A DNA stretch of 64,000 nucleotides, taken from Magnetococcales bacterium. GTDB taxonomy: Bacteria; Pseudomonadota; Magnetococcia; Magnetococcales; JADFYX01. Location: assembly GCA_015232365.1 (NCBI GenBank), contig JADFZU010000004.1, positions 5,371 through 69,370 of the forward strand, written 5' to 3'. Positions 12,376 through 45,057 of the stretch are shown here, one piece after another (the stretch's first letter is position 1; the number at the start of each line of letters is the position of its first letter). The notes beneath the pieces are model-generated. The model searched no databases and was not told where the DNA came from. It saw nothing but the letters and a program-made list of their open reading frames with translations. Position numbers and translations under genes: made by a program.

Positions 12376-13224
12376 ATGGCTGAGACCAATAAAGATGATG
12401 CTGCAAAAACCACTACCAAGACAGCAGCAACAGGTCAGAGGAAATCTGCTGCAACAAAAAAGGCAACAACGACAAAGCCTGTGACTGCAAGAAAAGCCAC
12501 AGCATCAACAGCTAATAAAAAAACAAGTACTACAAAGGCTGCAACTGCCAAAGCTAGTGGCACTGATAAATGGAATGACATCCATCCAGCTTTAGCAAAA
12601 GCTACCAGTGCAAAAAAATCTGCTAAAACAGCCAAGAAGACTCCAGCAGCATCTAAGGGTGTAGCGGTTACCAAGGCAAAAGCAGCAACTAAACCAAAAG
12701 CAGCAACTAAACCAAAAGCGGCAACCAAATCTGTAACCAAGGCAAAAGCAGCGGGCAAAAAAACCACGCGTAAAATTGCTAGCACTAGCAAGACAAAGGT
12801 GTCGGCGGCATCACTGCGTGGTAGTAATGATAGTCCTACGGCGGCAGATAAATCACTCCAGCTAGCATATAAACAGGTTGAAGTCGAAAGTTTAGGTGCT
12901 GGCATTGCTGCGGTACTGGGTGATGCTGTTAATAAAGTGGTATCTGGTGGCAAAAAGGCCAAGAGTGCTGTTGGAGATGGTATTGGTAGTATCACTTCAG
13001 GCGGCAACAAAACCAATAATAAACAATCTAAAAAAAGTAACCCTTCAGTGATGGAGCAGGTAGCTGAAAAGGTTCCTAACGGAGCAAAAGCTATCATCGG
13101 TGGTGTTGGTCGTGTGGTAACTGGTGGTAAAGATATAGTTGTTGGTACTTTTGGTTGTCTTGGTGGAACAGCGGTCTGTATTGCTGATACAGTTACTGAT
13201 GCTGTAAAGGGTAAAGGCAAATAG
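12376..13224 (+). CDS. Lys/Ala/Thr-rich hypothetical protein at the mamJ position (mamE-mamK interval)
   Basis: Highly basic low-complexity N-terminus with KAATKP repeats. C-terminal VEVESLGAG and GTFGCLGGTAVC motifs are shared with 38758-40494 (both) and 40578-40955 (first only). Confidence 0.8.
   Translation: MAETNKDDAAKTTTKTAATGQRKSAATKKATTTKPVTARKATASTANKKTSTTKAATAKASGTDKWNDIHPALAKATSAKKSAKTAKKTPAASKGVAVTKAKAATKPKAATKPKAATKSVTKAKAAGKKTTRKIASTSKTKVSAASLRGSNDSPTAADKSLQLAYKQVEVESLGAGIAAVLGDAVNKVVSGGKKAKSAVGDGIGSITSGGNKTNNKQSKKSNPSVMEQVAEKVPNGAKAIIGGVGRVVTGGKDIVVGTFGCLGGTAVCIADTVTDAVKGKGK
12677..12730. repeat. 18-bp tandem repeat (~3 copies) encoding KAATKP
   Basis: CAAAAGCAGCAACTAAAC twice plus a degenerate third copy. 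Confidence 0.85.
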
Positions 13225-14725: not shown

Positions 14726-14787
14726 TTTGAATTTTGTCCCGAATATTTAATTGGAGTTTGAATCGTGAAAATTAGAGGAGATTAGGT

Positions 14788-27033: not shown

Positions 27034-27091
27034 AAAAACAGGCAAAAAAAAACTCCCCAGATCTCTGGGGAGTTTTTTTTTGCCTGTTTTT
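27034..27091. terminator. Bidirectional terminator between convergent mamT and mamD
   Basis: Perfect 27-bp inverted repeat: AAAAACAGGC-A9-CTCCCCAG / CTGGGGAG-T9-GCCTGTTTTT. Confidence 0.9.
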
Positions 27092-27102: not shown

Positions 27103-28185
27103 TTAGCTCTCTAAAGATAGCTCTTCCATATCTCCAGCTTCATCAGAAGGGTTGTTTTTCATGTAGCCATAAACCCCAACACCAAAGGCTGCTGCACCAA
27201 CTAGAAGAAGTGGACCCCAAGCTCCAAGACCAAGACCAAGACCCAAGCTTAAACCAGTTCCTTTCCAAATTGTTCCAGTGCTAGCAACTTTGGCAGCTTG
27301 TGCAGTTGTTGCAGATTTGCCAGCAACAGCGGCACCTGTTTTTCCAGCAGCTGCTCCGGTTTTGGCTACAGTGTTTTGGACAGCGATACCGCCATTGCCA
27401 TTTAGTGCAGCAGGTGTTGCTACAGGGCATGGACCGCCATTGAAAGCTACAGTTGATGCAACCGCACCTTTAGTTGCCATGCCGCCAGCAGCAGCCGGTT
27501 TAAACGCCAACCATTGTGGGCCGGCAACTCCAGAAGCCATTGGTGCTTTACTGACTACAAAACTTTTTCCAACCATAGATGAAGCTGTCGTGGAGCCTGT
27601 TCCTTGAATATTCAAGGCTACGATTTTTTCTCCAGCAGCACCAGCACCTGATGCAGGCTTCAAAAACATCCAGTTTGATGTTTTAGCACCAGCAACTGCA
27701 GGTGGCTTCATTACAGTGAAAGATTTTCCAGCAAATGTTGAGGAGTCGACAAATTTACGTGCTCCTTCGGCTTTAACCAGTACCATCTGCGAAGTGGTTC
27801 CAGCTTTGGTTGTCGCAGCACCTTTGCCGGCAGCGGCAAGAGCAGCTCCTTTAGCGGCAGCCCCTTTGCCAGAATTTAGAATTAAAAACTTACCAGTGCC
27901 ACCAACTGTAGCCGGAGATTGACCAACTGTTACAGTTTTGCCTGCCAGCCCTGATAGTTGTGATATCTGGTTGGTTCCCTCAATTTTGAGAGCGACTGAA
28001 CTCTGCTTGCCAGTAGCAGCAACAGGGTGGAGAAACAGCCATTTGGAAAGGCCGGTCTTTCCAGCTGCTGACACGTTGCCAACAGTGTATGTATTGCCTT
28101 GAAGGGCAGCCAATTGAGATGTCTGGTTTATCCCGTTTATTTTAAAAATTGTTGTCTCGGCAGCTGCCATTAGAGTGCTCCCCAT
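27103..28185 (-). CDS. mamD: MamD (Mms7)
   Basis: Repeated (L/M)xGK(T/S)(V/F)TV..W(L/M)FLxP modules, then GTIWKGTGLSLGLGLGLGAWGP and an acidic tail. Confidence 0.9.
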   Translation of the reverse strand: MGSTLMAAAETTIFKINGINQTSQLAALQGNTYTVGNVSAAGKTGLSKWLFLHPVAATGKQSSVALKIEGTNQISQLSGLAGKTVTVGQSPATVGGTGKFLILNSGKGAAAKGAALAAAGKGAATTKAGTTSQMVLVKAEGARKFVDSSTFAGKSFTVMKPPAVAGAKTSNWMFLKPASGAGAAGEKIVALNIQGTGSTTASSMVGKSFVVSKAPMASGVAGPQWLAFKPAAAGGMATKGAVASTVAFNGGPCPVATPAALNGNGGIAVQNTVAKTGAAAGKTGAAVAGKSATTAQAAKVASTGTIWKGTGLSLGLGLGLGAWGPLLLVGAAAFGVGVYGYMKNNPSDEAGDMEELSLES

Positions 28186-28431: not shown

Positions 28432-29019
28432 ATGCTTCCTCTTTTAATTCCAGCAGGTATCTCCGCAGTCCTTGGTGTTGTTGTTGGTCGTAAGGTAGCC
28501 GAGATTGCAAGGGAAGACCGTTTGCAAAAAGGTTATGCCAAAGCATTTAATAAACCTGTCACCGTAGAAATAGTTAAAGAGTATATAGTTAGTGATGAGA
28601 GTCTAATCCTGGCTACGGAAGATGTGCCTTTAGATAATCAATATGGAAATCAAGATCTCAGTAGCGAACATGAATTTATCAGGACGGCAACAATATCGTT
28701 GGAGATTGCTAAAAACCGGGAGGTTGGTTCAGCTCTGAATTCTGGTTTTTTCAAGGCATTTGAGACCAAGATAGCTGATGAGCTATCTAAGAGTTTGGGA
28801 ACCAAAATCGGTAGCCAGATAACCAGAAGAGTACGCCTGAAATTTTCTGTGGGGCCGCAAAAATCCGCTAAGTATAGAATTATCTGGAAACAGGAGTCCC
28901 GGCGTGGTCTGTTTGAGATATTGGTGAGCAATAAAAAGAGGTATAAAATACCATATATGGTGAACTATGGTCTAAGTCACTCTGTGGAGAGCATTTCTGA
29001 TGAGGCTTTCTCTACTTGA
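28432..29019 (+). CDS. Hypothetical protein with N-terminal hydrophobic anchor
   Basis: 195-aa ORF divergent from mamD; AGGA upstream; beta-strand-like C-terminal part. Confidence 0.7.
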   Translation: MLPLLIPAGISAVLGVVVGRKVAEIAREDRLQKGYAKAFNKPVTVEIVKEYIVSDESLILATEDVPLDNQYGNQDLSSEHEFIRTATISLEIAKNREVGSALNSGFFKAFETKIADELSKSLGTKIGSQITRRVRLKFSVGPQKSAKYRIIWKQESRRGLFEILVSNKKRYKIPYMVNYGLSHSVESISDEAFST

Positions 29020-29796: not shown

Positions 29797-31245
29797 ATGA
29801 GCAACTCTATAGAAAAGAAATTGTATTTAATGGTGCTGTTTTCACTGTTGCTATTTTTTATTGCTCCAGTTCAAACTGTTTTGGCAGGAGAGGGGGTGGT
29901 TGAGTTGATAACCGACCCGCCAGGGGCTGCTGTATATGTTGATGGGCAGTTAAAGGCCAAAGCTACCCCGGTAAAGGTTCGCCTGCCTTCAGGGTTACGG
30001 CGATTCGAGTTGCGTAAGAGTGGTTATCGTAAGCTTGATTTTAGCCTCTTTCTATCTGGTGGTGTCACTCTTAGCAAATCTATGTTTTTAATTCCTGCTG
30101 GAGTTATTGAGTCTGGTGAAGATGGGCCTGTGCTGGATTTTTTAAAAATAAAAGCTCCTATTCGAGATAGCTTTGAAACCGATAAGGAGTATAACGATAG
30201 GGTTGTTATCTCAAAACAGTACCGCCTTGAAAAGCTGCATAGGTTTAACAGAATGGCTGGAAACCCAATTTTTTCTGCTGGTAAGGTGTCGCTGTTAAAA
30301 GAAAAATATGATATCGGCTCTGGCCGTTTTCCAGTCAATTTTGAGCCGCGCAAGTGGTCTTTAAAAGTTTTAAAGTTCAAAAAAAGTTTTTTGTTTGTAA
30401 ATCGTAATATGGCTAGAAAGCTTTTTAGTGCCGGTGATGAGCATCCTGTCTATATTTCTTTTGCAGATAACGGCAATGTTAAAGATGCTTTTGTTATTTC
30501 TGGCACCGAAAAACTTTATCTTATGGGGGTTGGTCGTTTTAAACAGTTGTTACCTGATATGGGTTTTGTGGCAATCCAAGGTAGTTGTTTTACTATGGGT
30601 AGTGTTCGTGGTGCAAAAAATGAAAAGCCTGAGCATGAGGTCTGTGTCGACCCTTATTGGATAGGTAAATATGAGGTGACCCAGGGGGAGTGGATGAAAA
30701 TAATGGGTAAAAACCCTTCACGTTTCCGTCGTGGAAAAAACCATCCTGTTGAAAGGGTTACCTGGAATGATGCACAGAAGTTTATCAAAAAATTGAATGC
30801 AAAAGGTGGTGTAAAATATCGTCTGCCTACCGAAGCTGAGTGGGAATATGCTAATCAGGGCGGTCAAGGTGGTCTATACCCTTGGGGAGATAAAAAGCCG
30901 GTCTGTCAGCGGAAAGTAAATAATGGTGCAAAGTTTGATGATGATAGAGTGTGCAATGATACCGGAACCAATTATGTAGGCCGTTATGCTGCCAATTTAT
31001 TTGCACTACATGATATGGCTGGCAATGTACGTGAGTGGGTGCAGGATTACTATGGCAGTGATTATTACAAAAAGAGTAAGGGGTTGAAAAATCCAACAGG
31101 GCCGGCTGCTGGAAAATTCAGGGTTATGCGTGGAGGAAGCTGGTCTGAGCCTGGAAGTAAGTTGCGGTCTACTTTAAGATCTTTTGCTGGTCCAGATTTC
31201 AAAGCAGATAATCTGGGTTTTCGACTGGTAATGTCTCCACAATAA
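29797..31245 (+). CDS. Secreted PEGA domain plus FGE-sulfatase (SUMF1) domain protein
   Basis: Signal peptide; ITDPPGAAVYVDG PEGA motif; KYEVTQ, RLPTEAEWEYA, DMAGNVREW, RGGSW, GFRLV. Confidence 0.92.
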   Translation: MSNSIEKKLYLMVLFSLLLFFIAPVQTVLAGEGVVELITDPPGAAVYVDGQLKAKATPVKVRLPSGLRRFELRKSGYRKLDFSLFLSGGVTLSKSMFLIPAGVIESGEDGPVLDFLKIKAPIRDSFETDKEYNDRVVISKQYRLEKLHRFNRMAGNPIFSAGKVSLLKEKYDIGSGRFPVNFEPRKWSLKVLKFKKSFLFVNRNMARKLFSAGDEHPVYISFADNGNVKDAFVISGTEKLYLMGVGRFKQLLPDMGFVAIQGSCFTMGSVRGAKNEKPEHEVCVDPYWIGKYEVTQGEWMKIMGKNPSRFRRGKNHPVERVTWNDAQKFIKKLNAKGGVKYRLPTEAEWEYANQGGQGGLYPWGDKKPVCQRKVNNGAKFDDDRVCNDTGTNYVGRYAANLFALHDMAGNVREWVQDYYGSDYYKKSKGLKNPTGPAAGKFRVMRGGSWSEPGSKLRSTLRSFAGPDFKADNLGFRLVMSPQ

Positions 31246-31360
31246 TTTTTTAACAGAGTTGAGAATTGCTATCAAAAAGAAAATAAGTTAGATTCTTTAT
31301 CTATATTTATTATTATGATCTGTTTTGGTGTGTGTTATTTTATAAATATAACAGGGTGTT

Positions 31361-31663
31361 GTGATGTTTAGGTTTTTTGTTGTAGCGGTTTTTATGTTTG
31401 GTTTGCTCTCTTCAGGGCTATCTTTTGCAATGGGTGAGGCGACAAACGGTTCATTGTTGGTAAAAGTCATCCCTCGTGGAGCTGAGGTAGTGATTAATGA
31501 TAGGGTTGTTGGAAAAGCTCCTCTACTATTGACAAAAGTTCCAAAAGGCAAGGTATGGGTTCAGGCCAGATTAAACGGTTACAGAACCTGGGGTAAGAGT
31601 GTTGATATAAGTGAATCAGAGAAGAATACTGTCACTCTGATTCTAGCTAGATCATTGAAATAA
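31361..31663 (+). CDS. Small secreted PEGA-domain protein
   Basis: Signal peptide; GSLLVKVIPRGAEVVIND..GKAPL..LNGY. Confidence 0.85.
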   Translation: MMFRFFVVAVFMFGLLSSGLSFAMGEATNGSLLVKVIPRGAEVVINDRVVGKAPLLLTKVPKGKVWVQARLNGYRTWGKSVDISESEKNTVTLILARSLK

Positions 31664-31808
31664 AGGTTGGTAAAATTTTGCAAACAGGCTGCTTTTGCAG
31701 ATATTTTGTTAATTATTGTAAATATCTCTAACCTGATTGACCAATAAAGTTTTCCCAGTTATAGTTAAATGTCAATTTTCTTTTAATTTTTTCTACATTC
31801 TCGGCAAC

Positions 31809-34800
31809 ATGGCTGATATTACAGGGGCTGAAGAGGGCGAAATAGAATCCAACGCCCTTTTTCTTACTTACGGGGGAATTGTTGATTCCTTCTTTGCTGA
31901 TGGCAAAGAGGCTGGGGAGCCTATATCTGTCGTACCAGCCAACCTTAACGTAAGTCAGTCACCTGTAACCGATACACTTCCTCCAATAACTTTTTCAGAC
32001 TCTGTAGAGGATCATGAAGATTCCAAAGATGATGCGGAAACTGCGTTATCTGAAGAGAGTGGCGAAAAGTCTCCAGAAGATACCACCACTCTTGTCACTA
32101 ATAATCTCCCCAAAAAAGAGCTTGAAAAAATTCAGGAGTTGGTCGATGGGTATCGACGTGTTCTTAGCAAGAAGAGTAAAAGTGGTGATCGTGTGGAGTT
32201 GGGCGAGGAAGAACAGCTTCTTGCCTCATATCTAAAAGATTTTCGTAGTGCTCTAAAAAGTGAAGATGAATCCGCACTTGAGTCCAATCCATTTTATGAT
32301 CTGACAAAACAGATCTACAAATTAAACCTAGACGGTGTCAGCGAAGCCTTTCAGAAGATAAGCAAGGGAGGGGATGAGCCTCTGCCACGGTCTATTTTTG
32401 TTGCTCGAAGCTTAAAAGAGATCTGGTCCGGATCTAACAGTTCAAGAAATGGGTTTTTTAATAAGTTGTCAGAAACTTTTGGCAAGTGGATGGCCTTTTT
32501 CAGAACCCCTCTATCACTACTGCTATTTGTAGGTTCCACATATACCACTGCAAGGGGTGTTAATGACCTTCTGCAGATGGATGATGTTGGTTTGGTGTTT
32601 GGTGATCTTTTTGCTGGTAGTTCTGGAGAGGCAAACCGCTATATAGTTTGCCTTGCTAGCGGTCTGGTTCTCTCTTCGGCTATTCTAGATTATAAAACCA
32701 GAATATTTCAATCCATGGTTGAATGTGGGCTGGTGTTCAAGGGAATAAAAGATGCTTTTTTACGTTTTCCTCGTTGGATGATTCTGGCGACACTTTTAGC
32801 CTTCGTCTCGGTTAAAACCAATTATGATGGTATTGTCTCCATCATCTCAAAAAAAGAGGATCTTGCCCAGCAGTCCCAAATTATCACCAGCCGGGTCCGT
32901 AAGGCTATCGGCAGCCCATTTTTTATGAACGCCAATGATCCAGATTCACTGTTTGATCTGCAAGCCTCATTGCAGCAGACTACCAGAGAGATCCGAGGAG
33001 TTTTTAGGACTCTACCTGAAGATGAGATCAAGGGGGTTGCCTCAAGTGGCGACCCTCGTAAAGGCCCACGCTACTGGGCTAAACATTTTATTGTTCATGG
33101 TGGTTATGAGCCTGGTGTCAACGATGTAAAATTGGCTTTTAATGATCATAGGTTTGCCAGACAAATCGATGACATGCTTAAAAATTCTGGTATTGATTTC
33201 AGTTCATCTTTTTCAGAAAAAGTTGAGATTCTCAGAGGTAAATACGAGGATCACCTGAATTCCACTGATAGTTTGGTTCGCAAATACCTTGGCGAACTGA
33301 ATGTCCTGATGAGTATGGGTGGCTACTCTCTAGATGAAATTAAGCGGGTTTTAGCTCTTGAGCACTATCAAATTAATGATATTGTTCAGATTATTGTTAA
33401 TGCACTAGAAGAGAATAAACAGGCATACAAAGAGACTACTGTTGATTTGAGTGAGCTGACCAATACCTATCTGGGGATATTACAGATGGTTGATAAGTCT
33501 GGAACCTCTGGTTTGAGTTCCTATCAGGTCAAAGCAGAAGTTGTTGTACCCAAAATCGAAGCTATTGATGAACTGAGAAAGGGAAAAATCCCTGCAGCCA
33601 AACATAAGAATTTTGAAGAGCTGCGGGAGTCTCTTATGCTGAAATACGGCATAAGCCTTGGTGGCATGCTTTTAATTTCGATTCTTTTCTTCTCTATCAG
33701 CATGGACTTTGGCGATCCTATTGTCTATAGCCGAATGACTGCTAGAAGAGGGAAAAAAGACCGGGTATTCTATAAAGACCGACTGGCCAAGCTTAAAAAA
33801 TGGGAAGATGAGTTCTTTAGGAAAGCCAGCCTGTTTTTTGAGAATAATGAGGTTAGAGAGGTGTTTCTAGACCCTCAGCCTCCTGGTGAGACACTGGTTA
33901 AAAATGGATTTTATCTGCTGCTGGAGAAGGTAAACTTTGAGCTGAAAGATCATCAAGACAAGACCGGCTATGAGCGGTTTGACTCTTGGTTTCAAGGGAT
34001 GTTCCGGTTTAGTAGAACTGCTGATATGGCAGGATTGAATAACCGTCTGGCATCTACTAGAACCATACTCAGTAAACCCAGCCGTTATTTTCCTGATTGG
34101 GGAAAGTTTATCTATCCGGATTTTTGTCTTGATAAAACTTTCAAACGCAGCACATTCCTTGAATGGCATACTGAGAAACAACGTATTTTAGAAGAGCAGC
34201 GTGTCAACTTTTATCAGGAGTTGCGGGATATTTCAAAATCCCAACCCGGTTTGGTATCGAACTCTCCAACTGACCTATCTCCGAGACAAAAAAGATTAGC
34301 TGACTGGGCTGATAAAAAAGGCATGACGTTTGTTGGTAGAGCCTTGATGGCTGTTAACCGTTTCTGGTTTATTATGTTCCAAGCTGTAAAAAAAGAGCCT
34401 CTTGCTGGGTTTAGTTATACTAGAAGGGGGTGGCTCAAGGCGTTTTCTGAAGATAGTCAGGAGTCAGAAAAAATTGTTGAGTCTATTTATAGCTTTATTC
34501 CAGATTTGAAGAAGGTTGTTTTTGAGACCTTGCCATATATTCAAGAGAGTTATCTTGATCCAATATTGGAGTTTCTTGCCAAATATCCTGGTTACGACGG
34601 CTATAACGATGTTCTTAATGGTGAAAAGCTGCAAAAGCAGTTTGAGGAGATTGAAAAAGAGGCTTTGGATCTTTGGGGTGTCTCATTTTTTGCCACAGAC
34701 GATCCTGGTGGTTATTTAGGTCTCTCCTCTATAATGACACAAGAGGAGATTAACAACCTCCAGGAGATGGTAGCAAAAACCGGTACTGATTCTGTGGTGT

Positions 34801-35771
34801 TCTCCCGAAGAGTTGAAAAACTTACATCTGATATGAAGCAGGCATATGTTATCGTCAGTACTACTGAGGAGATAAACCATCTGCTCACCCAGGTGCGGAC
34901 CATATGTGTTGATGTTAACCAATCTTTGATGAAAATCAAAATGCGAGCTTGGGAGCTTCGTAGTAGCGGTACTGCTAATGCAAACCAGTTTTTAAATACC
35001 GCCACTGATCTGCAAACAAACGCACCAAAAGAGGCTGATAGTATTTTGTCTGTAATGGAGGCAATTCTGCAATCAAATCAGCCATATACCAGAGAGAACC
35101 TTGCTACTCTGCGTACGCTGTATCAGCAATCATCTGAGCTTCAGGACCGTATCATGGCTTTTGTCGATGTCGGCAAAGATAGTACCACCACAACCCAAGA
35201 TTATAGTCCAATTGCACCTGTAATGTCTGAACCTGTTTATGAAGAGCCAGAAGCAACTGAGGAGGTGCTGGCCGAATCTATGTCAGAGGTAGAAGAGCAA
35301 GCTGCAGTAGTGGAGCCTTACACCCACACCAGGCACAACTTACAGGAAATGCAGTCTCCAGAAGATGAAGTAGAACAAAGCTCAGAGGCTGTTATTCCAA
35401 CATTTATCCAAGATGATTTTGATGATGATGGTCCTGTCGTTATGCCTTCATTACCAGAAGCTGATGAGTCTGTAGTGGCATCTCGCCAGGAAGAGCGGAT
35501 AAACCGGAAGGTTTTTGCCATTTATCAAACTAGCCGTGGTGCATTGTTTGAGGGGTATACCGGAGAGATCGGCACAAGCAGCCTTGATTTTATCTCCAAC
35601 ACAGACCCTTCTATGTTGCCAATAGGCAATGAAGGCATTCTTCAGGTAACTGTTGATGATGCCAACTACCAGTTTGCAGGTAAAGTTGTTCGTGTTTCAG
35701 ATGCTCGTATTGTAGTGCGTGTTCTTGCTGAGCAGGACAAGTTTAAGGAACTGCTGGCTCCCATGGCCTGA
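31809..35771 (+). CDS. Large hypothetical membrane protein (3+1 TM, helical) with C-terminal PilZ-like domain
   Basis: Acidic N-terminus; three hydrophobic segments, a ~270-aa loop and a fourth TM; long helical tail ending RQEERI..EIGTSSL..GKVVRV. The ATG at 31809 is preferred over the ORF-track start at 31737. Confidence 0.75.
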   Translation: MADITGAEEGEIESNALFLTYGGIVDSFFADGKEAGEPISVVPANLNVSQSPVTDTLPPITFSDSVEDHEDSKDDAETALSEESGEKSPEDTTTLVTNNLPKKELEKIQELVDGYRRVLSKKSKSGDRVELGEEEQLLASYLKDFRSALKSEDESALESNPFYDLTKQIYKLNLDGVSEAFQKISKGGDEPLPRSIFVARSLKEIWSGSNSSRNGFFNKLSETFGKWMAFFRTPLSLLLFVGSTYTTARGVNDLLQMDDVGLVFGDLFAGSSGEANRYIVCLASGLVLSSAILDYKTRIFQSMVECGLVFKGIKDAFLRFPRWMILATLLAFVSVKTNYDGIVSIISKKEDLAQQSQIITSRVRKAIGSPFFMNANDPDSLFDLQASLQQTTREIRGVFRTLPEDEIKGVASSGDPRKGPRYWAKHFIVHGGYEPGVNDVKLAFNDHRFARQIDDMLKNSGIDFSSSFSEKVEILRGKYEDHLNSTDSLVRKYLGELNVLMSMGGYSLDEIKRVLALEHYQINDIVQIIVNALEENKQAYKETTVDLSELTNTYLGILQMVDKSGTSGLSSYQVKAEVVVPKIEAIDELRKGKIPAAKHKNFEELRESLMLKYGISLGGMLLISILFFSISMDFGDPIVYSRMTARRGKKDRVFYKDRLAKLKKWEDEFFRKASLFFENNEVREVFLDPQPPGETLVKNGFYLLLEKVNFELKDHQDKTGYERFDSWFQGMFRFSRTADMAGLNNRLASTRTILSKPSRYFPDWGKFIYPDFCLDKTFKRSTFLEWHTEKQRILEEQRVNFYQELRDISKSQPGLVSNSPTDLSPRQKRLADWADKKGMTFVGRALMAVNRFWFIMFQAVKKEPLAGFSYTRRGWLKAFSEDSQESEKIVESIYSFIPDLKKVVFETLPYIQESYLDPILEFLAKYPGYDGYNDVLNGEKLQKQFEEIEKEALDLWGVSFFATDDPGGYLGLSSIMTQEEINNLQEMVAKTGTDSVVFSRRVEKLTSDMKQAYVIVSTTEEINHLLTQVRTICVDVNQSLMKIKMRAWELRSSGTANANQFLNTATDLQTNAPKEADSILSVMEAILQSNQPYTRENLATLRTLYQQSSELQDRIMAFVDVGKDSTTTTQDYSPIAPVMSEPVYEEPEATEEVLAESMSEVEEQAAVVEPYTHTRHNLQEMQSPEDEVEQSSEAVIPTFIQDDFDDDGPVVMPSLPEADESVVASRQEERINRKVFAIYQTSRGALFEGYTGEIGTSSLDFISNTDPSMLPIGNEGILQVTVDDANYQFAGKVVRVSDARIVVRVLAEQDKFKELLAPMA

Positions 35772-35976
35772 CAAGGTTCCAGTAAAAAAAATCTTCTATG
35801 TTGCTTTTTTTACTACGTTAGCCCTATTGAAAAAAGATTTGCAAACAGCTAAGTATAGGCAGTTTTACAACATAGCAGTAGAAGTAAAACCGGTGCATTA
35901 TAGATAACTTTTTTTGATCAGGCTCAAAACATTACCAGAATGTTTATTTTTCAGCCGGTAATCAGGCTGTGGAGTC

Positions 35977-37221
35977 ATGGATTTTAGGTCTGTTAATATT
36001 AGAGCAGGTAAAATAGCTGAGGGGGGCGATATGAAATTAGGGGGTGATACAGCGCCAACCATTTTTTTGGAACTGGTTGCTGGGTTGATTTTTTTGTCTG
36101 TAATAATGGTTGTTGCTAGCCTGGCTAAAACTCCTCCTGCCTCGGTGTCAAAACCACATCAAACTCTTAAGTCCACCTCTGTCGCTGCATATTCTGAGAA
36201 GTCCGCACTTGCAAACCCTGTGGACTATATCCTCAATACAGTTCTAAATCAGGTTATGCAACGTTTTCAAGCTCTAGATCAAAAAGTTGATGCTCTGGTT
36301 GCCGTAAGAGATGAGCATGTCTTTTCAAAAGTAAACACAGTTACGGCAAAAGTTGCAGAGTTAAGGCAGAGCCAGCAAAAAAATATACTGCCTGGGGTTA
36401 ATGAGCTACAGAGGAAAATAGACTTTATTACTCTTGAGCATGAGAGGTATATAACTCCAACTATTGCCGGGCTAAGCGACCACCTTGCCAATTTATCCTC
36501 TATAAATGGTGTTGGTATTCCGGCCATAGGGGGAGGGGCAATAGTTGATGAAGATAGCGGTTCTGGAGCTACTGGGTATATTGCAGAACCAGAACCGGTA
36601 TTGCTTGAAGAGTCGTCCTTAGATCCTGAAACGGTAGAAGTAGCTAAACAGGCAACCATAATCAAAAGCGACTTATCTACTGCTGTTGATCCACCCCCAG
36701 TCGTTAGAAAGATGAGTAATCTTGAGCTTGCTAAGAGGCTGCAGAAGGTTTTGGCCCGTTACGGTATTGGCTCCACTATCGGTTTAAACAATAATGGATT
36801 ACTATTAGAGGAGTTTTTCGATTTTGATATAGGATCATCTTTTTTGCCCAAGGATAAAAGAGCCAAACTCTCTATACTGGCAGATGCTTTATCAGAAATT
36901 TTTCTCTGTTACGCCAATTCAACAGACATTTTAGTTATGGCGAAATGTCAGGGCAGGAGTAATCCTGTTGGTGTAAGTTCAGTTATAGTTAAAGCGTTCT
37001 CAATTGGTGACAATGTCGGTACTGAGCGGTTCAACTATAATTGGCGGTTGGCATCTGCAAGATCAATAGAGGTGTTGAAAGCAGTTGTTACTTCTCGCCC
37101 TGACCTGCTGGAGTTTAAAAATAGAGAAGGGTTAATTATGTTAAAAGCTGTAGCAGAGCTTGCAAAGTCTGGATCAAAAAGGACACGGAGTATTGAGCTT
37201 CAGTTTGTTATAGATAAATAA
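35977..37221 (+). CDS. MotB/ZorB-like single-TM protein with degenerate OmpA-like C-terminal domain
   Basis: TM IFLELVAGLIFL (Glu at the position of the conserved MotB/ZorB Asp), coiled coil, FDIGSSFL..NWRLASARS..RSIELQF. The EGHTD motif is not retained. Confidence 0.65.
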   Translation: MDFRSVNIRAGKIAEGGDMKLGGDTAPTIFLELVAGLIFLSVIMVVASLAKTPPASVSKPHQTLKSTSVAAYSEKSALANPVDYILNTVLNQVMQRFQALDQKVDALVAVRDEHVFSKVNTVTAKVAELRQSQQKNILPGVNELQRKIDFITLEHERYITPTIAGLSDHLANLSSINGVGIPAIGGGAIVDEDSGSGATGYIAEPEPVLLEESSLDPETVEVAKQATIIKSDLSTAVDPPPVVRKMSNLELAKRLQKVLARYGIGSTIGLNNNGLLLEEFFDFDIGSSFLPKDKRAKLSILADALSEIFLCYANSTDILVMAKCQGRSNPVGVSSVIVKAFSIGDNVGTERFNYNWRLASARSIEVLKAVVTSRPDLLEFKNREGLIMLKAVAELAKSGSKRTRSIELQFVIDK

Positions 37222-37320
37222 TCACCTCTAAACCCTTGCATTGTCATGGCGACAGTGTAGATGATGTAGTGTGTTAAAAATTTGATCTGCTAAATTAGAT
37301 AGGGTTCTTAGTCTATAATC

Positions 37321-38403
37321 ATGAAACTGCCTAAAATCATCATATTGCAAATTTTTCTCCTGTTAACATCTTTTCCGTTATTAAGCTGGGGAGCCGACTA
37401 TTATCAACGAGAGGAGTCTATCTTGGATGATCTTCGCTCGGCAGTTGATACTTTTGGAGCCAGGCATTACAACACTGTTCCTCACAGGCTGAAATTGGCA
37501 GATTTTTATATTGAAGAAGGCGAGTACTACAAAGCCGAGCCAATGTTGCACCAGGTTCGTTCTCTGATGGAGAAGCGGTTTGGGGTTGGAAATGCAAAAC
37601 TAATTCCTATACTAAAAAAACTGGCTGCTCTAGATCTTAGACAAAACCGCTATAGTTTTGCTTTAAGCCAATATAAACGGGCAGCGTCCATAGCCACAAG
37701 ACATTATGGCAGTAACTCAACCAAGACCAAACAGATCCAAACTATAATTGCTGAGACTAGAAGAACCGAGCGGGAGTGGAAGCGCCTCGGTAGTAAGCCA
37801 GCAGTATTTACTGAAACAAAGAGGAACCGTGCCCAGTCTTCAAATAAGTTTTCAAGAGCTGTGTTTCCTAGTACATCTTCAGCAAAACAGGCAGCAGTCA
37901 ACAGCGGGGTAGCAGCAATATCGCCTATAAAAAGTAAGCCCCCAGAGGTAAAGAAAAAGAGCTTTAATGCTTCCAGTAGCAAAGTAACAGTTAAAAATAA
38001 TGTGGTAGCCGCTGTCGCCTCTTCTCAATCCAAGAAAGTGCAAAATCCGGCAAAAAAAACTGAGCATGGAGTAAAAACGGTAACTTTACCTCCGGCAACA
38101 GTGGCATCTACGGCTAATGCTCCAATAAATCTAGACTCTGAAGGAATTCCAAGAGAGCCTGCTGCTGAGTATAAAAAAGGCTTTTTTATATCAATGGGCT
38201 GTTTTGGCGATAAAAAATTTGCAGTTGGTCAGGTTAACCGGGTGATGGCTCTTAATGTGCCAATATATATGAAAAGTATTCGAGGAGACTCTCTACACTG
38301 TGTGTTTGGTGGACCGTTCCCAACAAGAAGTGCTGCCCAAGCTGCAGCTGACCTCTCTCGTGCCAAAGCCGGGGTTGAAGATACCTTGGTTCGTAGTTAT
38401 TAA
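37321..38403 (+). CDS. Secreted TPR plus SPOR-domain protein
   Basis: Signal peptide, 2-3 TPR-like repeats (LADFYIEEGEYYKAEPM), low-complexity linker, C-terminal FFISMGCF..VFGGPFPTRSAA SPOR-like domain. Confidence 0.75.
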   Translation: MKLPKIIILQIFLLLTSFPLLSWGADYYQREESILDDLRSAVDTFGARHYNTVPHRLKLADFYIEEGEYYKAEPMLHQVRSLMEKRFGVGNAKLIPILKKLAALDLRQNRYSFALSQYKRAASIATRHYGSNSTKTKQIQTIIAETRRTEREWKRLGSKPAVFTETKRNRAQSSNKFSRAVFPSTSSAKQAAVNSGVAAISPIKSKPPEVKKKSFNASSSKVTVKNNVVAAVASSQSKKVQNPAKKTEHGVKTVTLPPATVASTANAPINLDSEGIPREPAAEYKKGFFISMGCFGDKKFAVGQVNRVMALNVPIYMKSIRGDSLHCVFGGPFPTRSAAQAAADLSRAKAGVEDTLVRSY

Positions 38404-38505
38404 TAACTGCAAACTATATATTTATCTAAAAAAAAGCATCAGGCAGTTTTTTTTGCCAATCACGATAATAATTTAAAAACTGCAATTAGAAGTGTGTAAA
38501 TAGAA

Positions 38506-38674
38506 CAATTTAGAAACGGTAGATGGAAGCACACACCTGGCACAACCTATTGGCTCACCAAGCATATCAGGGAAAAATCTTGTCACCAACAATGTGACTG
38601 CTATTTTGCTTGAAACAGCAGATAAGTCGATAGATTACACTATGCACATACTTTCACAGCCATTTCTTGGATAA
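38506..38674. repeat. MITE-like element, diverged full-length copy
   Basis: Shares CTGGCACAACCTATT, TCACCAACAA.GTGACT and CAGATAA with 40953-41120 at matching spacing. Termini AGAAACGGT...GCCATTTCT still pair. Confidence 0.75.
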
Positions 38675-38757
38675 TACAAAAAAATATAGAAGGTCGACAG
38701 TTTTTTTTTGCTGTAGTTCCATGTTAGAATTCCTGTTTATTTCTTTATAATCTGAGG

Positions 38758-40494
38758 TTGATAATGGCTAAGGATAGATTTGATAACGATTCACCAACAA
38801 CTCAAAGTCGGCAAGAGAGCGACGATTTACAAAATATTGCTACTCTCAAAGGTGTAGATATATCTCTAGGTTTTGGCCGTAGGCCATCTCCTGATCAATT
38901 TGAAGAGACACAAGTCTCTGTTAAACTTTATGAAAGTGCTGGTAAACTTGCGGCAAGAGCTGAGAAAAAAGTGATCACCGATCCTTGGAAAATTAAAGAC
39001 GGTTCTGATAAATCTCCTATAAGCCGCCTGAAAAGCCTGGCTTCTGAAATAAGTAAAGAGGAGAGTACGCGGCCTAAATCTATCTCTCCTCTGGAGTCAT
39101 TTATTCAGTCAAAAAGTTCTAAAAAACCTTCTGCTGTAAATGGTGGTAGTGCTGAAAATGTTGTTGTGGCAAGGGTTGCAGCAAACAGTGAGCAGCTAAA
39201 AAAACAGGGAGTACCTGATACGTTTGCAGCAGGTGATAATATAAAGCAGCCACAGCTTTCCAAGCAGATGGTTACCAGTGAACATAAAAAGCCAGTTAGG
39301 GTTCCAACTTCTGGCAATGCCAAGGCTGCACCCCATCGCCAGGAGGTATATAAACCTTCTGTTGGTTTGCCATTTGCGCCTCTTTCAGAAAGCAAGATCA
39401 TAACTACAACTACAACCAGATCCAAAACAGAACCTGCCCCTATTAAAAATCTTGCAGCTAGTGGTGCAGTCTCTATTATTTCAAGGTCTAGAGTTGTTAA
39501 AAGCAGCTCTGGATCAGGGCGTACTACAATCAAACGCAAACAGATGATGAATCAGCCTACAATTTTGCATGCAATATTTACAAATAAGGGCCATGACCAA
39601 CTACCTGTCACACCCACTAAAAAAGTTGCTGAAGTTTCTGCTAGCAAGGGAGCTGATGTAGTTGCATCAGAAGACAGTGCAGGACTGTTTACCCAGCTTA
39701 AACAGGTGAAAAAGGCACAGATTAGTAGAAAAAGCGTAATTAAAAATAGTCAGTTTGTCCCTGTATCACAGGACTCTCCAGATAGTGGGGATATCCATGA
39801 AGATGTTGAAGTGTCTCGACCTTCAACAGTTGACAAAATTGTTACTTTGGCCGAAAAAGCTGTTGACCGTCAGCAAAATGATCTTAACTCATCGACTTTT
39901 AAGCCGGTCTATTCTGGTGCGGAGGCGGTTCCCATGGGCTCTTCAAAAACTCTGTTCTCTATTTCTAAACCGGAAACAGAAGCGCAAAGTTTACAACCTG
40001 ACTTTGGTGCAATATCTACACAAAAAAGTGAAGAACGGCCCTCTTATGAATTTACCATGACCGCTTCCATGGCTAGAACCAGAAATGCGGCAGGAGAAGA
40101 GGAGCAGTATTGGTCTGTACCTGTGGAGACTCTTGGCTCTGGTGTTGCCAATATGTTGGGAAATGCGGTTGGCGGTGTTGTCCATGTCAGTCAGGTTATT
40201 ACAGGCGGAACAAAACGCAAAGTGACAAGCAAACCTAAGGCTAAACCTCAGGCTGCAAAATCTGTAAATGTTGTGAATGTGCCGCTAAAGCGTGGACAGC
40301 GAGTAAAAAAGGCGATGGCTAATAAGATTGGCAGCGGTATTGGTGGCATCTTCAGTGGAGTTGGTGAAGTAGCAAAAGGTGGGGCTAATATTGTCGTTGG
40401 TACTCTCGGCTGTATTGGTGGTGCACTGGTCTGTGTTACTGGTGCAAAAGTTGGAGCCGATAATCGAGCACAAAAAAAAGAACTGTTAAAATAA
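38758..40494 (+). CDS. Low-complexity Ser/Lys-rich protein; C-terminal domain paralogous to 12376-13224
   Basis: VPVETLGSGVANMLGNAV and IVVGTLGCIGGALVCV vs VEVESLGAGIAAVLGDAV and IVVGTFGCLGGTAVCI. Confidence 0.8.
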   Translation: MIMAKDRFDNDSPTTQSRQESDDLQNIATLKGVDISLGFGRRPSPDQFEETQVSVKLYESAGKLAARAEKKVITDPWKIKDGSDKSPISRLKSLASEISKEESTRPKSISPLESFIQSKSSKKPSAVNGGSAENVVVARVAANSEQLKKQGVPDTFAAGDNIKQPQLSKQMVTSEHKKPVRVPTSGNAKAAPHRQEVYKPSVGLPFAPLSESKIITTTTTRSKTEPAPIKNLAASGAVSIISRSRVVKSSSGSGRTTIKRKQMMNQPTILHAIFTNKGHDQLPVTPTKKVAEVSASKGADVVASEDSAGLFTQLKQVKKAQISRKSVIKNSQFVPVSQDSPDSGDIHEDVEVSRPSTVDKIVTLAEKAVDRQQNDLNSSTFKPVYSGAEAVPMGSSKTLFSISKPETEAQSLQPDFGAISTQKSEERPSYEFTMTASMARTRNAAGEEEQYWSVPVETLGSGVANMLGNAVGGVVHVSQVITGGTKRKVTSKPKAKPQAAKSVNVVNVPLKRGQRVKKAMANKIGSGIGGIFSGVGEVAKGGANIVVGTLGCIGGALVCVTGAKVGADNRAQKKELLK

Positions 40495-40577
40495 AGCTAG
40501 GCTAAACGGATTGCAACTATCAATGCTTATAATCAAAATACAGTTAAATTTTCTGTATTTATTTATGGAGAGATATA

Positions 40578-40955
40578 ATGTCGTATAATAGTACAGATGA
40601 TGATTATCTTGGTGAGTTGACCTTGGATGATGAACAACCTACAGTTGCCCAAGATTATGTTGCCTCTGAGTCGGCAGCTACTGATGAAGTAGTGCACGAG
40701 CCTGTTTTTGTTCCTGTGGAGAGCCTTGGTGCTGGGGTAGTCAACTTTTTAGGTGAGATGGTCGGTGGCTTGATTGGTTTAAAAGGACCTGTTCAACAAT
40801 CGCTAGAGAAGGGGGCACAGATTGTCAAAGATAAGGTCGAAGGTTTAAAAGCAAAAAAAACCACCCCTCACGATGAGGAGACAATAATACTTGATCAAGA
40901 ACCAATGGCTGAGCAGCCGGTTCAGGTCGCCAGGGAGGAAGATCCTCATCTATAA
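40578..40955 (+). CDS. Small acidic protein carrying the same VPVESLGAG motif
   Basis: GGAGAG RBS; D/E-rich; VPVESLGAGVVNFLGEMVGG. Confidence 0.78.
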   Translation: MSYNSTDDDYLGELTLDDEQPTVAQDYVASESAATDEVVHEPVFVPVESLGAGVVNFLGEMVGGLIGLKGPVQQSLEKGAQIVKDKVEGLKAKKTTPHDEETIILDQEPMAEQPVQVAREEDPHL

Positions 40956-41173: not shown

Positions 41174-43309
41174 TTAGCTCCTGGACCAGCGGTGTAACCT
41201 CTCCAGCCACAACATAACTCTCTTTGAAACATGGGCCTTTTTCCAGGCCCCGGCTGCATATTTGTTTGCTTCGGCCATAGTTGGGTAGATATGGATGGTC
41301 CCAAGTATTTTGTTCATGCCAAAGCCGTGGCGCATAGCGGCTACATACTCTGCAATTACATCTCCAGCATGGTTGCCAACAATCGTTGCTCCCAGAATTT
41401 TATCTTGGCCGGGAACAGTGAGTATCTTCACCACTCCATGGGCCTCTTCATCAGCAATAGCCCGGTCCAGATCATCAATTCCGTATCTGGTTATCTCATA
41501 GGCAATATCCTTAGCCTTAGCCTCTTGTTCGTTCAATCCAACTCTTGCCACTTCCGGGTCGGTAAATGTAGCCCAGGGTATGACTGAATAGTCTACTTTA
41601 AACTTTTTAAATCGTCCAAAAAGGGCATTGACTGCTGCATACCAGGCTTGATGAGCGGCGGTGTGGGTAAACTGAAATGGTCCTGCCACATCTCCACAGG
41701 CAAAAATATTGGAAAAATTTGTTCTAAGATATTGGTCGGTTTTTATAGTACCATCTTCGTCAAGTTCTACACCCAACTCTTCTAAACCAAAACCTGAAAC
41801 GTTGGCGGTGCGACCGGTTGCTACAAGAAGTTGATCAAATACGACACGTTTTTCAACCCCGTTATGGCTACAGATCAAAACTTTATCTGCTCCATCTTTG
41901 ATAAATTCCTGCATTGAGTGGTTGGTTAATACATTGATTCCTTCAGAAATAAATTGCTCTAGAACCATCTGTGAAATTTCCGGGTCCTCCTTTTTCATAA
42001 GCCGGTTACCTCTTAAAACCATGGTGGTGTCGCAGCCGAGGCGGGCAAAAGTCTGGGTTAACTCGCAACCGATAGGACCAGCTCCTAGGACCAGCAACCG
42101 TTTTGGCTGCTGCCTTATTGCCCAAATGGTATCGGAGGTCAGAGGTTCCACACTCATAATGCCAGGTATTGATGGCATAGAAGGGCGTGCTCCAGTTGCT
42201 ATGACAATATTTTTGCTGGAAATGGTTTTTCCGTTAACTTCAACATGGTAGGGGGAGGTGATGCGTGCTGCACCTTTTATACACTCAACTCCAAGCTCTG
42301 TGTATCGTTCTACTGAGTCGTGGGGCTCAACCTTTTTGATTACCCGTTGGACCCGCTCCATAACCTCCGCAAACTCAAATTTTACATCTGCCGAGCGGAA
42401 TCCAAACTCTTTGGCTCTACGGGCATTGGATAGAAATTTTGCCGAACGGATTAGAGCTTTGGATGGGACACATCCGGTATTCAGGCAGTCACCACCCATT
42501 TTATGTTTTTCTATCAAGGTGACTTTGGCTTTAACAGCGGCACCAATATAGGTGGTGACCAACCCTGCTGCTCCGCCACCAATGGCGATTAGATTGCGGT
42601 CAAAAGTTTTAGGTCTAGGGTATTTTGCCAATATTTTTCTTGATTGCATCCACAGGACAGATTTTTTTGCCAGTAGTGGGAAGATTCCCAGAAGGGCAAA
42701 AGAACCAATCATCCCTGGAGAGAGAATGCCAGAAATGGACTCCAACTGTGCAACCTGTGTCCCAGCATTTATAAAGACAACTGTGCCAGCCAGCATGCCA
42801 ATTTGACTGACAAGATAGAAGACTGGTGTCGAAATAGGGGTCAGGCCCATAACCAAATTGATAACAAAAAATGGAAAAGCCGGCACTAAACGTAAAGTGA
42901 AAAGGTATATGGGGCCATCTTTTTTCATGCCGTCATTTACAGCCTGTAATTTATCAGCAAATTTGGTTTGAATAAGGTCGCGTAGCAGGTAGCGTGAGGC
43001 TAAAAAAGCTAGCGTTGCACCAATTGTTGAGGCGAAGGATACGATAATCGTCCCGTAAAAAACTCCAAAGACTGCTCCTCCAGCAAGGGTCATTATTGCT
43101 GCTCCAGGAAGTGAGAGACCGGTGACTATTACATATGTGACAAAATAGACCAACACGGTTTTGCTTGGATTGCTCTCATAAAAACTGTAGATAGCTGCTT
43201 GTTGGGATTTTAAAAACTCCAGGGTTAGATAGTCGCCAAGATCAAACCAAAAAAAAGCGTAGATCAGTCCGGCAATTATTAGTAGCAGAAAGATTCTTTT
43301 ACCATTCAT
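41174..43309 (-). CDS. DedA/VTT (SNARE-associated) domain fused to a MerA/LpdA-like pyridine nucleotide-disulfide oxidoreductase
   Basis: N-terminal TMs with LRLVPAFPFFVIN; GGGAAG, GGDCLNTGCVPSK, GAGPIG, HIYPT; no C-terminal MerA Cys pair. Confidence 0.93.
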   Translation of the reverse strand: MNGKRIFLLLIIAGLIYAFFWFDLGDYLTLEFLKSQQAAIYSFYESNPSKTVLVYFVTYVIVTGLSLPGAAIMTLAGGAVFGVFYGTIIVSFASTIGATLAFLASRYLLRDLIQTKFADKLQAVNDGMKKDGPIYLFTLRLVPAFPFFVINLVMGLTPISTPVFYLVSQIGMLAGTVVFINAGTQVAQLESISGILSPGMIGSFALLGIFPLLAKKSVLWMQSRKILAKYPRPKTFDRNLIAIGGGAAGLVTTYIGAAVKAKVTLIEKHKMGGDCLNTGCVPSKALIRSAKFLSNARRAKEFGFRSADVKFEFAEVMERVQRVIKKVEPHDSVERYTELGVECIKGAARITSPYHVEVNGKTISSKNIVIATGARPSMPSIPGIMSVEPLTSDTIWAIRQQPKRLLVLGAGPIGCELTQTFARLGCDTTMVLRGNRLMKKEDPEISQMVLEQFISEGINVLTNHSMQEFIKDGADKVLICSHNGVEKRVVFDQLLVATGRTANVSGFGLEELGVELDEDGTIKTDQYLRTNFSNIFACGDVAGPFQFTHTAAHQAWYAAVNALFGRFKKFKVDYSVIPWATFTDPEVARVGLNEQEAKAKDIAYEITRYGIDDLDRAIADEEAHGVVKILTVPGQDKILGATIVGNHAGDVIAEYVAAMRHGFGMNKILGTIHIYPTMAEANKYAAGAWKKAHVSKRVMLWLERLHRWSRS

Positions 43310-43327
43310 GTTAAAAAAGCCTGTTGA

Positions 43328-45047: not shown

Positions 45048-45057
45048 GTTTTAGACT

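Follow-up and report, generated by a model that had tools for sequence, protein, structure and literature searches.

A Maq1-Containing, Zorya-Like Gene Module Linked to the Magnetosome Clusters of Magnetococcales and Its Possible Role as an Envelope Tether

Introduction

Two kinds of described system bear on the genes considered here. The first is the ZorAB complex of type I Zorya (Hu et al. 2024, PMC11946911; PDB 8QYD, 8VVN), in which the B subunit binds the cell wall through residues Tyr151, Asn152, Leu155 and Arg159, and whose transmembrane (TM) aspartate is described there as an essential residue, conserved universally among 5:2 motors. The second is a group of genes noted in the magnetosome islands of magnetotactic cocci. 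In this work we compare with both of them seven genes at positions 29797-40955 of a 64,000-nucleotide stretch (the window) of the genome of a Magnetococcales bacterium (contig JADFZU010000004.1, assembly GCA_015232365.1), which lie beside a magnetosome gene cluster.

The island of Candidatus Magnetaquicoccus inordinatus UR-1 has a gene of unknown function, maq1, between mamE and mamK, a trio of genes with EH-signature, MotB and apolipoprotein domains, and 11 conserved genes after mamT, and maq1 is there called family-specific (Koziaeva et al. 2019, PMC6783814). Strain FCR-1 has a MotB gene upstream of a mamD-like gene, with maq1 also noted (PMC11950176), and one maq1 homologue occurs outside the original family (PMC12791574). 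The passages of these three papers considered here tie these genes neither to Zorya nor to each other. MotA, MotB, OmpA, PilZ and maq1 are not mentioned in PMC9840458, and the literature returned nothing relevant that joins magnetosomes with ZorA, Zorya or ExbB.

The way in which magnetotactic cocci arrange their magnetosomes and hold them in place has yet to be explained. MamJ and MamY are stated to be absent from the whole class (PMC6783814), and the literature has it that McaAB is missing too and that these cells must use another positioning mechanism. The reading that we tentatively prefer is that the seven genes are the window copy of a Magnetococcales-restricted accessory module which travels with magnetosome clusters, and which may tether assemblies of MamK and magnetosomes to the cell wall.

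Results

Motif Proteins and ZorA-Like Genes Accompany mamK

All seven genes lie on the plus strand, as the initial annotation had stated, with mamD, identified by NCBIfam, upstream. The last two encode Maq1-like proteins, a long one of 578 aa (38758..40494, +) and a short acidic one of 125 aa with pI 4.2 (40578..40955, +). A third protein, of 282 aa (12376..13224, +), is encoded in the interval between mamE and mamK, which is the position described for maq1 in PMC6783814, and is by this position and by the motifs given below classed as Maq1-like. The earlier proposal that the first two are paralogues of the interval protein is borne out by BLASTP (578-aa protein, E 7e-12; 125-aa protein, E 2e-04; among all three proteins the values are 7e-12, 2e-04 and 2e-07) and by a common motif. 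This motif 1 has the form VPVE-LG-G...LG..VGG and is the only motif of the short protein, while the 282-aa and 578-aa proteins also carry motif 2, a C-terminal Gly/Cys-rich hydrophobic segment (residues 541-563 of the 578-aa protein). The long Maq1-like proteins are basic (pI 9.8-10.4) and of low complexity. No Pfam family matches the Maq1-like proteins, and no NCBIfam family does so at E<=0.1 in a library that may lack a MamJ model.

A profile of the motif (A1), built from 10 sequences of the genus, was run against 56 Magnetococcales genomes (the window's and 55 others) from 16 families, and against 345 genomes from the same phylum but outside the order. It matches in 53 of the 56 genomes, spread over all 16 families, and in none of the 345 (E<=0.001). 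At 61 of 100 MamK loci, in 49 of the 56 genomes, a motif match on the same strand ends at most 700 bp upstream of mamK, and at 9 of the 100 a match lies just downstream. Counted from the motif side, 78 of 106 matches are within 700 bp of a mamK, and the exceptions include the two genes of the window and their orthologues in the arrangement called type A below. Motif proteins and MamK belong together. Although both motifs are present in the 578-aa protein, no mamK follows its gene on the 3' side; in other genomes, the counterpart of the short motif protein is encoded directly downstream of mamK.

Genes for ZorA-like proteins behave similarly. MamK is present in 54 and a ZorA-like protein in 52 of the 56 genomes. 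When the neighbours of 91 matches to the ZorA N-terminal domain are counted (tail-only rows dropped), 34 of them, in 28 genomes and 12 of the 16 families, lie within 15 kb of a mamK, and of the 39 that share a contig with mamK, 37 lie within 25 kb. By genome fraction about one such locus would be expected, according to an estimate of our own and not of a tool. From the linkage to mamK in 12 families, the position of the motif upstream of mamK, and the absence of the motif from all 345 outside genomes follows that the module is a genuine set of accessory genes, tied to magnetosome clusters and, among the genomes sampled, confined to this lineage. The database homologues of the module proteins are, further, annotated as coming from metagenome-assembled genomes of Magnetococcales. 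The initial annotation would have been contradicted by genes common in non-magnetotactic taxa; neither the motif nor the family of the large membrane protein described below was found outside the order in the sampled genomes.

The ZorB-Like Protein

The fourth gene (35977..37221, +) encodes a protein of 414 aa, whose start is likely to be called too far upstream, as relatives begin at M19. We identify it as a protein of the ZorB type, because three comparisons agree: the PADLOC ZorB model (E 7.9e-16, residues 250-389), a profile of 12 relatives against solved structures, whose best match is 8vvn_B, the B chain of the type I ZorAB complex (E 2.1e-17), and a fold search with the AlphaFold2 (AF2) model, which again has 8vvn_B as best match (E 2.8e-08), with MotS and 8qyd_F ('Zorya ... 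ZorAB') next among the best. In all, Foldseek returns 63 PDB matches at E<=0.001, including ZorB, MotS, MotB, PomB, TssL and Pal/OmpA domains. The mean pLDDT of the model is 69.4, with about 90 in the C-terminal domain, and the predicted parts are a TM helix (25-50), a coiled coil (81-176), a disordered stretch (177-242) and an alpha/beta domain (248-412). No Pfam family, OmpA included, matches at E<=0.01. Searches of PDB sequences with the single sequences of the ZorB-like protein and of the SPOR tail treated below gave nothing useful, and only profiles matched; a word-based search with the ZorB-like protein found 2 proteins and is too insensitive to delimit its range.

The wall-binding residues of ZorB have counterparts in Y354, N355, L358 and R362, in the pattern Y-N-x-x-L-x-x-x-R. 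N355 and R362 are invariant among the 12 aligned ZorB-like proteins, as are C311 and C324. The acidic residue of the TM helix is Glu32, which is aligned with Asp26 of canonical ZorB; this position is Glu in 11 of the 12 and Asp only in the protein from genome G012, to which we return.

Arrangements in the Genus and a Second Locus

To exemplify how the module varies, consider the window's genome (G000) and four other genomes of the genus (G001-G004; family f1), seven loci of these four being searched by tblastn with the proteins of the window and of a second locus in G000. In type A, seen in the window and at G001:C113, the order is PEGA-FGE, PEGA, the large membrane protein, the ZorB-like protein, TPR-SPOR, long motif protein and short motif protein. 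Type A is also found at G004:C199 from the C-terminus of the ZorB-like protein onward, with the large protein on contig C293, and type A loci share the same three following genes. Type B (G000:C18, G001:C15, G004:C262 and G003:C88) has a ZorA-like protein, a ZorB-like protein, a motif protein and MamK. Type C (G003:C86, and G002 over contigs C249 and C410) has the large protein, ZorA-like, ZorB-like, TPR-SPOR, long motif protein, MamK and short motif protein, that is, type A with zorA between the genes for the large and the ZorB-like proteins and mamK between the two motif genes. The ZorA-like protein and a second MamK are accordingly encoded inside the module in two of the four sister genomes, G003 and G002, while in the window only 205 bp separate the genes for the large and the ZorB-like protein. 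Because the genes that flank these positions are orthologous in types A and C (large protein 59-67% identical, TPR-SPOR 40-52%), the simpler reading is that the lineage leading to G000, G001 and G004 lost zorA and mamK, and the window copy would then have lost both.

This raises the question whether the window copy is a decaying leftover, with the operon on contig C18 as the working system. Both engine genes have gone without trace, the PilZ tail of the large protein misses its DxSxxG motif in the whole orthologue group, and the ZorB-like protein of the window is more diverged than its C18 counterpart, all of which would fit decay. We nevertheless consider it improbable, since all seven open reading frames (ORFs) are intact, at lengths up to 1344 aa, since the arrangement without zorA and mamK is kept at G001:C113 and in part at G004:C199 with protein identities of 31-72%, and since Glu32 and the Y/N/L/R residues of the ZorB-like protein are conserved together with both Maq1 motifs.

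The C18 locus (L005, G000:C18:20001-40000, positions 7927-17292) encodes, on one strand and with gaps of 15, 120 and 29 bp, a ZorA-like protein of 1244 aa, a ZorB-like protein of 358 aa, a Maq1-like protein of 303 aa and a MamK of 346 aa. PADLOC matches the first two to ZorA (2.2e-22) and ZorB (4e-19). The ZorA-like protein has three hydrophobic segments, matches solved ZorA chains at E of about 5e-06 and keeps the counterparts of the filter residues Thr147 and Ser184. On the other strand lie genes for a Sel1-repeat protein and for a MamD paralogue that is 56% identical to the MamD of the window. A complex prediction that paired the C18 MamK with the last 135 residues of the neighbouring Maq1-like protein gave a score of 0.00 without controls and carries no weight either way.

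Yet another arrangement in this genome is split over two contig ends (G000:C59:14-3777 and G000:C78:1-8401; L007, L008). It has a 499-aa protein with motif 1, a paralogue of the large membrane protein, a SPOR-like protein (15.1 bits) encoded on the opposite strand, and a ZorA-like frame that is still open at the contig end after >1400 aa; a third MamK is at C59:19687-20706. Elsewhere, ZorA-like N-terminal domains head frames of ~4,100-4,600 aa (G001:C15:18800-19990, G004:C262:32950-33564, G010:C12:30931-31809, G025:C159:16302-17756 and G032:C164:24473-25393), and such tails would be several hundred nanometres long if helical throughout.

The Module in Other Families

The initial annotation had proposed synteny across Magnetococcales as a check, and here the result agrees with linkage: a core of the large PilZ-tailed protein, the ZorB-like protein, TPR-SPOR and the motif proteins recurs beside mam genes in families f1, f13, f14 and f15. 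In G016 and G028 (f13), mamT is followed by genes for a ZorA-like protein, a ZorB-like protein, a homologue of a 195-aa protein of the window (u195), the large PilZ protein and, at some distance, a TPR protein that ends in a SPOR-like stretch. The ZorA-like protein of G016 has 1705 aa and its gene starts 11 bp after mamT, and the PilZ tail of the large protein is there above the cut-off (4e-08). In G038 (f15) the order is large protein, ZorA-like (2632 aa), ZorB-like, TPR-SPOR, a 950-aa motif protein, MamK and short motif protein. In G024 (f14) it is ZorA-like, a 736-aa protein, ZorB-like, a TPR protein, MamK and short motif protein.

At the locus of G012 (f9; L035, G012:C4:1616001-1636000, positions 586-8735), a near-canonical ZorA (5.8e-48) and a full-length ZorB (1.2e-70) are followed by an EH_Signature protein (5.5e-16, with a weak Hpt match) and then by a histidine kinase, not a nuclease, and the ZorAB genes are beside mamD-like, mamH, mamE, a motif protein and mamK. 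This locus could encode a Zorya-like sensor that is wired to a phosphorelay.

Such similarities raise the possibility of a Zorya-type anti-phage system, intact or as a relic, that is merely carried along in the magnetosome island, as mobile islands often accumulate defence systems. Both the ZorA-like and the ZorB-like proteins match the PADLOC models and solved Zorya structures, G012 has its near-canonical ZorA, full-length ZorB and EH_Signature protein beside mamD-like and mamH, and the closest homologues of such genes are in non-magnetotactic bacteria according to PMC6783814. The neighbours, in contrast, are MamK, Maq1-like and SPOR proteins rather than nucleases; no nuclease or helicase domain was found in the module neighbours, the ZorD and ZorE models being run only via PADLOC on the module proteins. 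EH_Signature (ZorC, PF15611) has no match in G000-G003, and the single match in G004 is on a contig (C102) with none of the listed module or mamK matches. In G012 the EH_Signature protein precedes a kinase and not a nuclease. The Glu in place of Asp and a 200-residue linker in the ZorB-like protein also speak against defence, as does the linkage to mamK in 12 of 16 families, for defence islands normally turn over fast. Canonical Zorya itself was rejected for the window, which has neither zorA nor effectors and has Glu for the TM Asp. On balance, we judge a defence system riding in the island to be hardly probable. As far as sequence tells, the module is built on a Zorya-type stator without the DNA-targeting effectors of Zorya.

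The Large Membrane Protein

The third gene (31737..35771, +) encodes a membrane protein of 1344 aa if started at TTG. Its true start is probably M25 at 31809, which gives 1320 aa, the length of the database copies, so that the ORF call would be over-long. The whole protein has no match in Pfam, NCBIfam or PADLOC. Four hydrophobic peaks are found (residues 248-266, 299-317, 341-359 and 638-656), and the core is modelled by AF2 as all-alpha with a mean pLDDT of 78.9; a fold search with this core against the PDB gave no match at E<=0.001, and TM-scores did not exceed 0.15. Kinship with the ZorA-like protein of C18 was rejected, the best BLASTP match having an E of only 0.43.

The last 110 residues match PilZ (PF07238) with E 0.0023 and 18.7 bits, below the cut-off of 22.5, and a search of PDB sequences with this tail alone gave nothing useful. 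PF07238 is carried by 7 of 31 homologues, and the G016 orthologue has a passing score as well. In the orthologue group of the window, RQEER is kept and EIGTSS stands in place of DxSxxG, while both PilZ motifs (RxxxR and DxSxxG) are kept in family members G016, P0010, P0029-31 and G000:C78. We describe the tail as degenerate PilZ-like.

The family occurs in 32 of the 56 genomes, with up to 10 matches per genome; the named database homologues are all from Magnetococcales, and its core has no match at the strict threshold of E<=1e-60 in the 345 outside genomes. When 84 core matches are counted (weak and tail-only rows dropped), 16 are within 10 kb of a ZorA-like gene and 14 within 25 kb of mamK.

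The wide spread of the family leads to an unlikely alternative, namely that the genes make up a general c-di-GMP-regulated envelope or motility machine of magnetotactic cocci, in which PilZ-tailed membrane proteins work with ZorAB-like stators, for example at flagellar bundles, in division or in envelope upkeep, and which does not touch the magnetosomes. Proximity to mam genes would then come from islands that collect lineage-specific genes or from co-regulation with magnetotaxis. The family has up to 10 matches per genome, and 70 of the 84 core loci have no mamK within 25 kb on the same contig; some copies are beside a hybrid histidine kinase and a cNMP-hemerythrin gene on C103, and one is with a SPOR protein and the giant ZorA-like frame on C59/C78. 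Several family members keep the canonical RRxxxR and DxSxxG motifs, and SPOR domains are known to bind septal glycan. Against this stand the tie of the Maq1-like proteins to mamK (the 78 of 106 motif matches above), the mamK gene inside the module in G003, G002 and G038, and the ZorA-like gene immediately after mamT in G016.

TPR-SPOR, PEGA and the 195-aa Protein

The fifth gene (37321..38403, +) encodes a secreted protein of 360 aa with TPR repeats (TPR_12 passes Pfam) and a putative, divergent C-terminal SPOR domain. The SPOR match (PF05036) has 19.4 bits against a Pfam cut-off of 21, and a profile of 7 relatives has the SPOR domain of RlpA as its best PDB match at E 0.076. The orthologue in G038 is above the cut-off with 31.2 bits, and orthologues are encoded 3' of the ZorB-like gene in G001, G002, G003, G004 and G038.

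The first gene (29797..31245, +) encodes a secreted protein of 482 aa with FGE-sulfatase (E 1.5e-47) and PEGA (E 7.2e-06) domains, both above the Pfam cut-offs, and the second (31361..31663, +) a small secreted PEGA protein of 100 aa (Pfam PEGA E 3.5e-11). For the former, a GldK/PorK identity was considered, as the best NCBIfam match, and rejected because its 99 bits are far under the cut-off of 350. Five FGE paralogues of PEGA-FGE are found elsewhere in the genome. Orthologues of PEGA-FGE and of the small PEGA protein are upstream of and with the module, respectively, at G001:C113; of the pair, G003 has only PEGA near its module (C86), on the opposite strand; and PEGA-FGE has no match in the homologous loci of f9, f13, f14 and f15. 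By these comparisons, the two PEGA genes appear tied to the module in this genus only.

The domain calls of the initial annotation stand for PEGA-FGE, PEGA, TPR, the four hydrophobic segments and the ZorB type, whereas SPOR and PilZ are below the Pfam cut-offs in the window and pass in orthologues. Its view of the seven genes as a mam-linked set is partly supported: the core is linked to mam clusters, the PEGA-FGE/PEGA pair is linked to the module within the genus only, and most copies of the large protein are away from mam genes.

A probable further member of the module is u195 (28432..29019, +), outside the interval first delimited, with a hydrophobic N-terminus (residues 1-23). Homologues that are 38% identical are encoded between the ZorB-like and the large PilZ protein in G016 (L030:11360-11935) and G028 (L032:10600-11163), and another adjoins the module at G003:C86.

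The gaps between the seven ORFs are 115, 73, 205, 99, 354 and 83 bp, and there is a weak terminator-like hairpin at 38367-38391. A search for public sequencing runs, RNA included, that contain positions 35977-40955 gave none. One may therefore ask if three independent neighbouring sets are present: PEGA-FGE with PEGA, the large protein with ZorB-like and SPOR, and the two Maq1-like genes. The gaps of 205 and 354 bp and the hairpin are in favour, as are the absence of PEGA-FGE from the f9, f13, f14 and f15 loci, its absence near the module of G003, and the pair of Maq1-like protein and MamK in the main mam operon of the window, where no ZorAB directly adjoins. The order large protein-(ZorA)-ZorB-SPOR-long motif-(MamK)-short motif is kept in both f1 and f15, though, the type B loci have the genes for a motif protein and MamK right next to ZorAB, and a ZorA-like gene is still within 15 kb of mamK in 28 of 56 genomes, so that we think three unrelated sets quite unlikely.

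Surroundings in the Window

The magnetosome gene cluster runs on the plus strand from a MamH-like to a MamT-type gene. A MamH-like protein of the MFS family starts at 8406 (+), MamE, with trypsin, PDZ and magnetochrome domains, at 10154 (+), and MamK of the main cluster at 13304 (+). Beyond it are CDF transporters of the MamM/MamB type and MamN-, MamO-, MamP- and MamA-type proteins, and the operon ends with a LemA protein (MamQ type) and a magnetochrome protein (MamT type) that ends at 26886. Between the MamA-type and MamQ-type genes lies, inside the mamAB operon, a gene for an 844-aa TPR protein (20947-23481), whose repeats are C-terminal and whose N-terminal ~650 residues match no family.

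Between mamT and mamD there is a strong bidirectional hairpin terminator (27039..27086, both strands) with a 20-bp stem, 9 G-C pairs and T-runs on either strand. It closes the mamAB operon, and from this follows that the module is a separate transcription unit. The mamD gene itself, outside the module, is on the minus strand (27103..28185; NCBIfam MamD E 1.7e-74, 250.9 bits against a cut-off of 100). A short MamD-like match occurs at ~7270-7460, and three more MamD paralogues, 42-56% identical, are on contigs C18, C39 and C69 of G000, outside the main cluster. On the 3' side of the module, at 41174-46062, are genes for a VTT/DedA membrane domain fused to a pyridine-nucleotide disulphide oxidoreductase (711 aa), a DUF547 protein and a radical SAM/DUF3641 protein, whose order after the module is kept in G001 and G004.

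Discussion

An envelope tether for assemblies of MamK and magnetosomes is the best reading that we can offer of these genes, and we hold it as possible rather than probable. In its fuller form the module would consist of three parts. The first is a Zorya-type 5:2 stator, made up of a ZorB-like protein that is bound to peptidoglycan and a ZorA-like protein whose cytoplasmic tail is very long. The second comprises the large PilZ-tailed inner-membrane protein, the small membrane protein u195 and the periplasmic TPR-SPOR protein. The third is a second MamK, encoded between the long, tail-anchored and the short, acidic Maq1-like proteins with their shared short motif. Attachment to the wall would come from the ZorB-like and SPOR proteins, MamK filaments and magnetosome membranes would be reached by way of the ZorA tail and of Maq1-like adaptors, and the tether would in this way set the position of the chain or cluster in the coccoid cell, with the PilZ-tailed protein as a regulatory or scaffold subunit. 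In the genome studied here the module is split, and the window copy would have to work together with the C18 operon of ZorA-, ZorB-, Maq1-like protein and MamK, or else serve as a passive anchor.

Several observations weigh against this. The trans-envelope tether that was originally suggested gains from the linkage to mam genes and from two predicted wall-binding domains, but the window copy is without the ZorA and MamK that a tether would need, and tblastn turns up no trace of them (best E 0.39 and 0.58). Its ZorB-like protein has Glu where 5:2 motors have their essential Asp, and ~200 residues of coiled coil and disordered linker between the TM helix and the wall-binding domain, whereas ZorB has no such linker. 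It is, moreover, 36-44% identical to its G001 orthologue, compared with 50% for the C18 ZorB and its own orthologue, which would fit relaxed constraint. Most copies of the large-protein family are away from both mamK and ZorA, as counted above. Finally, with MamK in nearly all of the 56 genomes, every genome of the order is taken as magnetotactic; presence or absence within the order is for this reason uninformative, and related genomes are not independent.

A more active role can also be imagined. An ion-driven 5:2 motor of the Zorya type, either recruited from phage defence or sharing an ancestor with the defence system, would be anchored in the wall, and would by tails of hundreds of nanometres and Maq1-like adaptors hold the chains or actively move them; PilZ partners would tune it by c-di-GMP, and the EH_Signature protein and kinase of f9 (G012) may provide a signalling output. 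We regard such a motor as unlikely. Were the module indeed a tether or a motor for magnetosomes, it would be the first example of a ZorAB-type machine with a role other than phage defence.

For the positioning of magnetosomes in cocci the module gives concrete and conserved candidates: a wall-anchored ZorAB-like stator, a SPOR protein, a PilZ-tailed membrane protein, and a MamK flanked by two Maq1-like proteins. Several genomes with the fuller module come from strains that are cultivable according to the papers, and therefore deletion, tagging and cryo-tomography are feasible.

Among known systems, Zorya type I ZorAB is alike in having a B subunit with one TM helix, an acidic residue therein, a dimer-type OmpA/MotB domain and the Y-N-L-R residues, and an A partner, here in sister genomes and on C18, with three TM segments, Thr/Ser filter residues and a very long, presumably helical tail. 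It differs in that the window has no zorA, in the Glu at the place of Asp26, in the periplasmic coiled coil and linker, and in the neighbours, which are MamK, Maq1-like, SPOR and PilZ-tailed proteins instead of an adjoining ZorC or ZorD. The ZorA-like frames of relatives, moreover, reach from 2,600 to ~4,600 aa, as against 729 aa in the solved ZorA chain.

With MamJ-MamK-MamY of Magnetospirillum the module shares a low-complexity protein encoded directly upstream of mamK, in the position of MamJ, and the idea of a membrane-bound positional anchor, which is the role of MamY. MamJ is acidic, whereas the long Maq1-like proteins are basic and belong to no NCBIfam or Pfam family, and MamY, to our knowledge, does not bind the wall through a stator-type complex as the proposed anchor would. 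YcgR-type PilZ proteins act on MotA/MotB stators, and here, too, a PilZ-like domain is encoded next to a stator of the MotAB class. This domain is, in contrast, the tail of a 1344-aa polytopic membrane protein with no known fold, and the window copy misses DxSxxG.

The genes of UR-1 and FCR-1 also correspond to those described here, with a gene in the mamE-mamK interval, genes of the MotB-like and coiled-coil ('apolipoprotein') kinds in the island, and conserved hypothetical genes after mamT. That the module is undescribed, as first supposed, is accordingly true of the system, which is unnamed in the literature, and not of its parts, since maq1, a 'MotB' gene and the conserved genes after mamT are in print. 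In those papers the genes are treated singly and the trio is not linked to Zorya, and the window belongs to another family (f1). At the level of its motif, maq1 is not family-specific.

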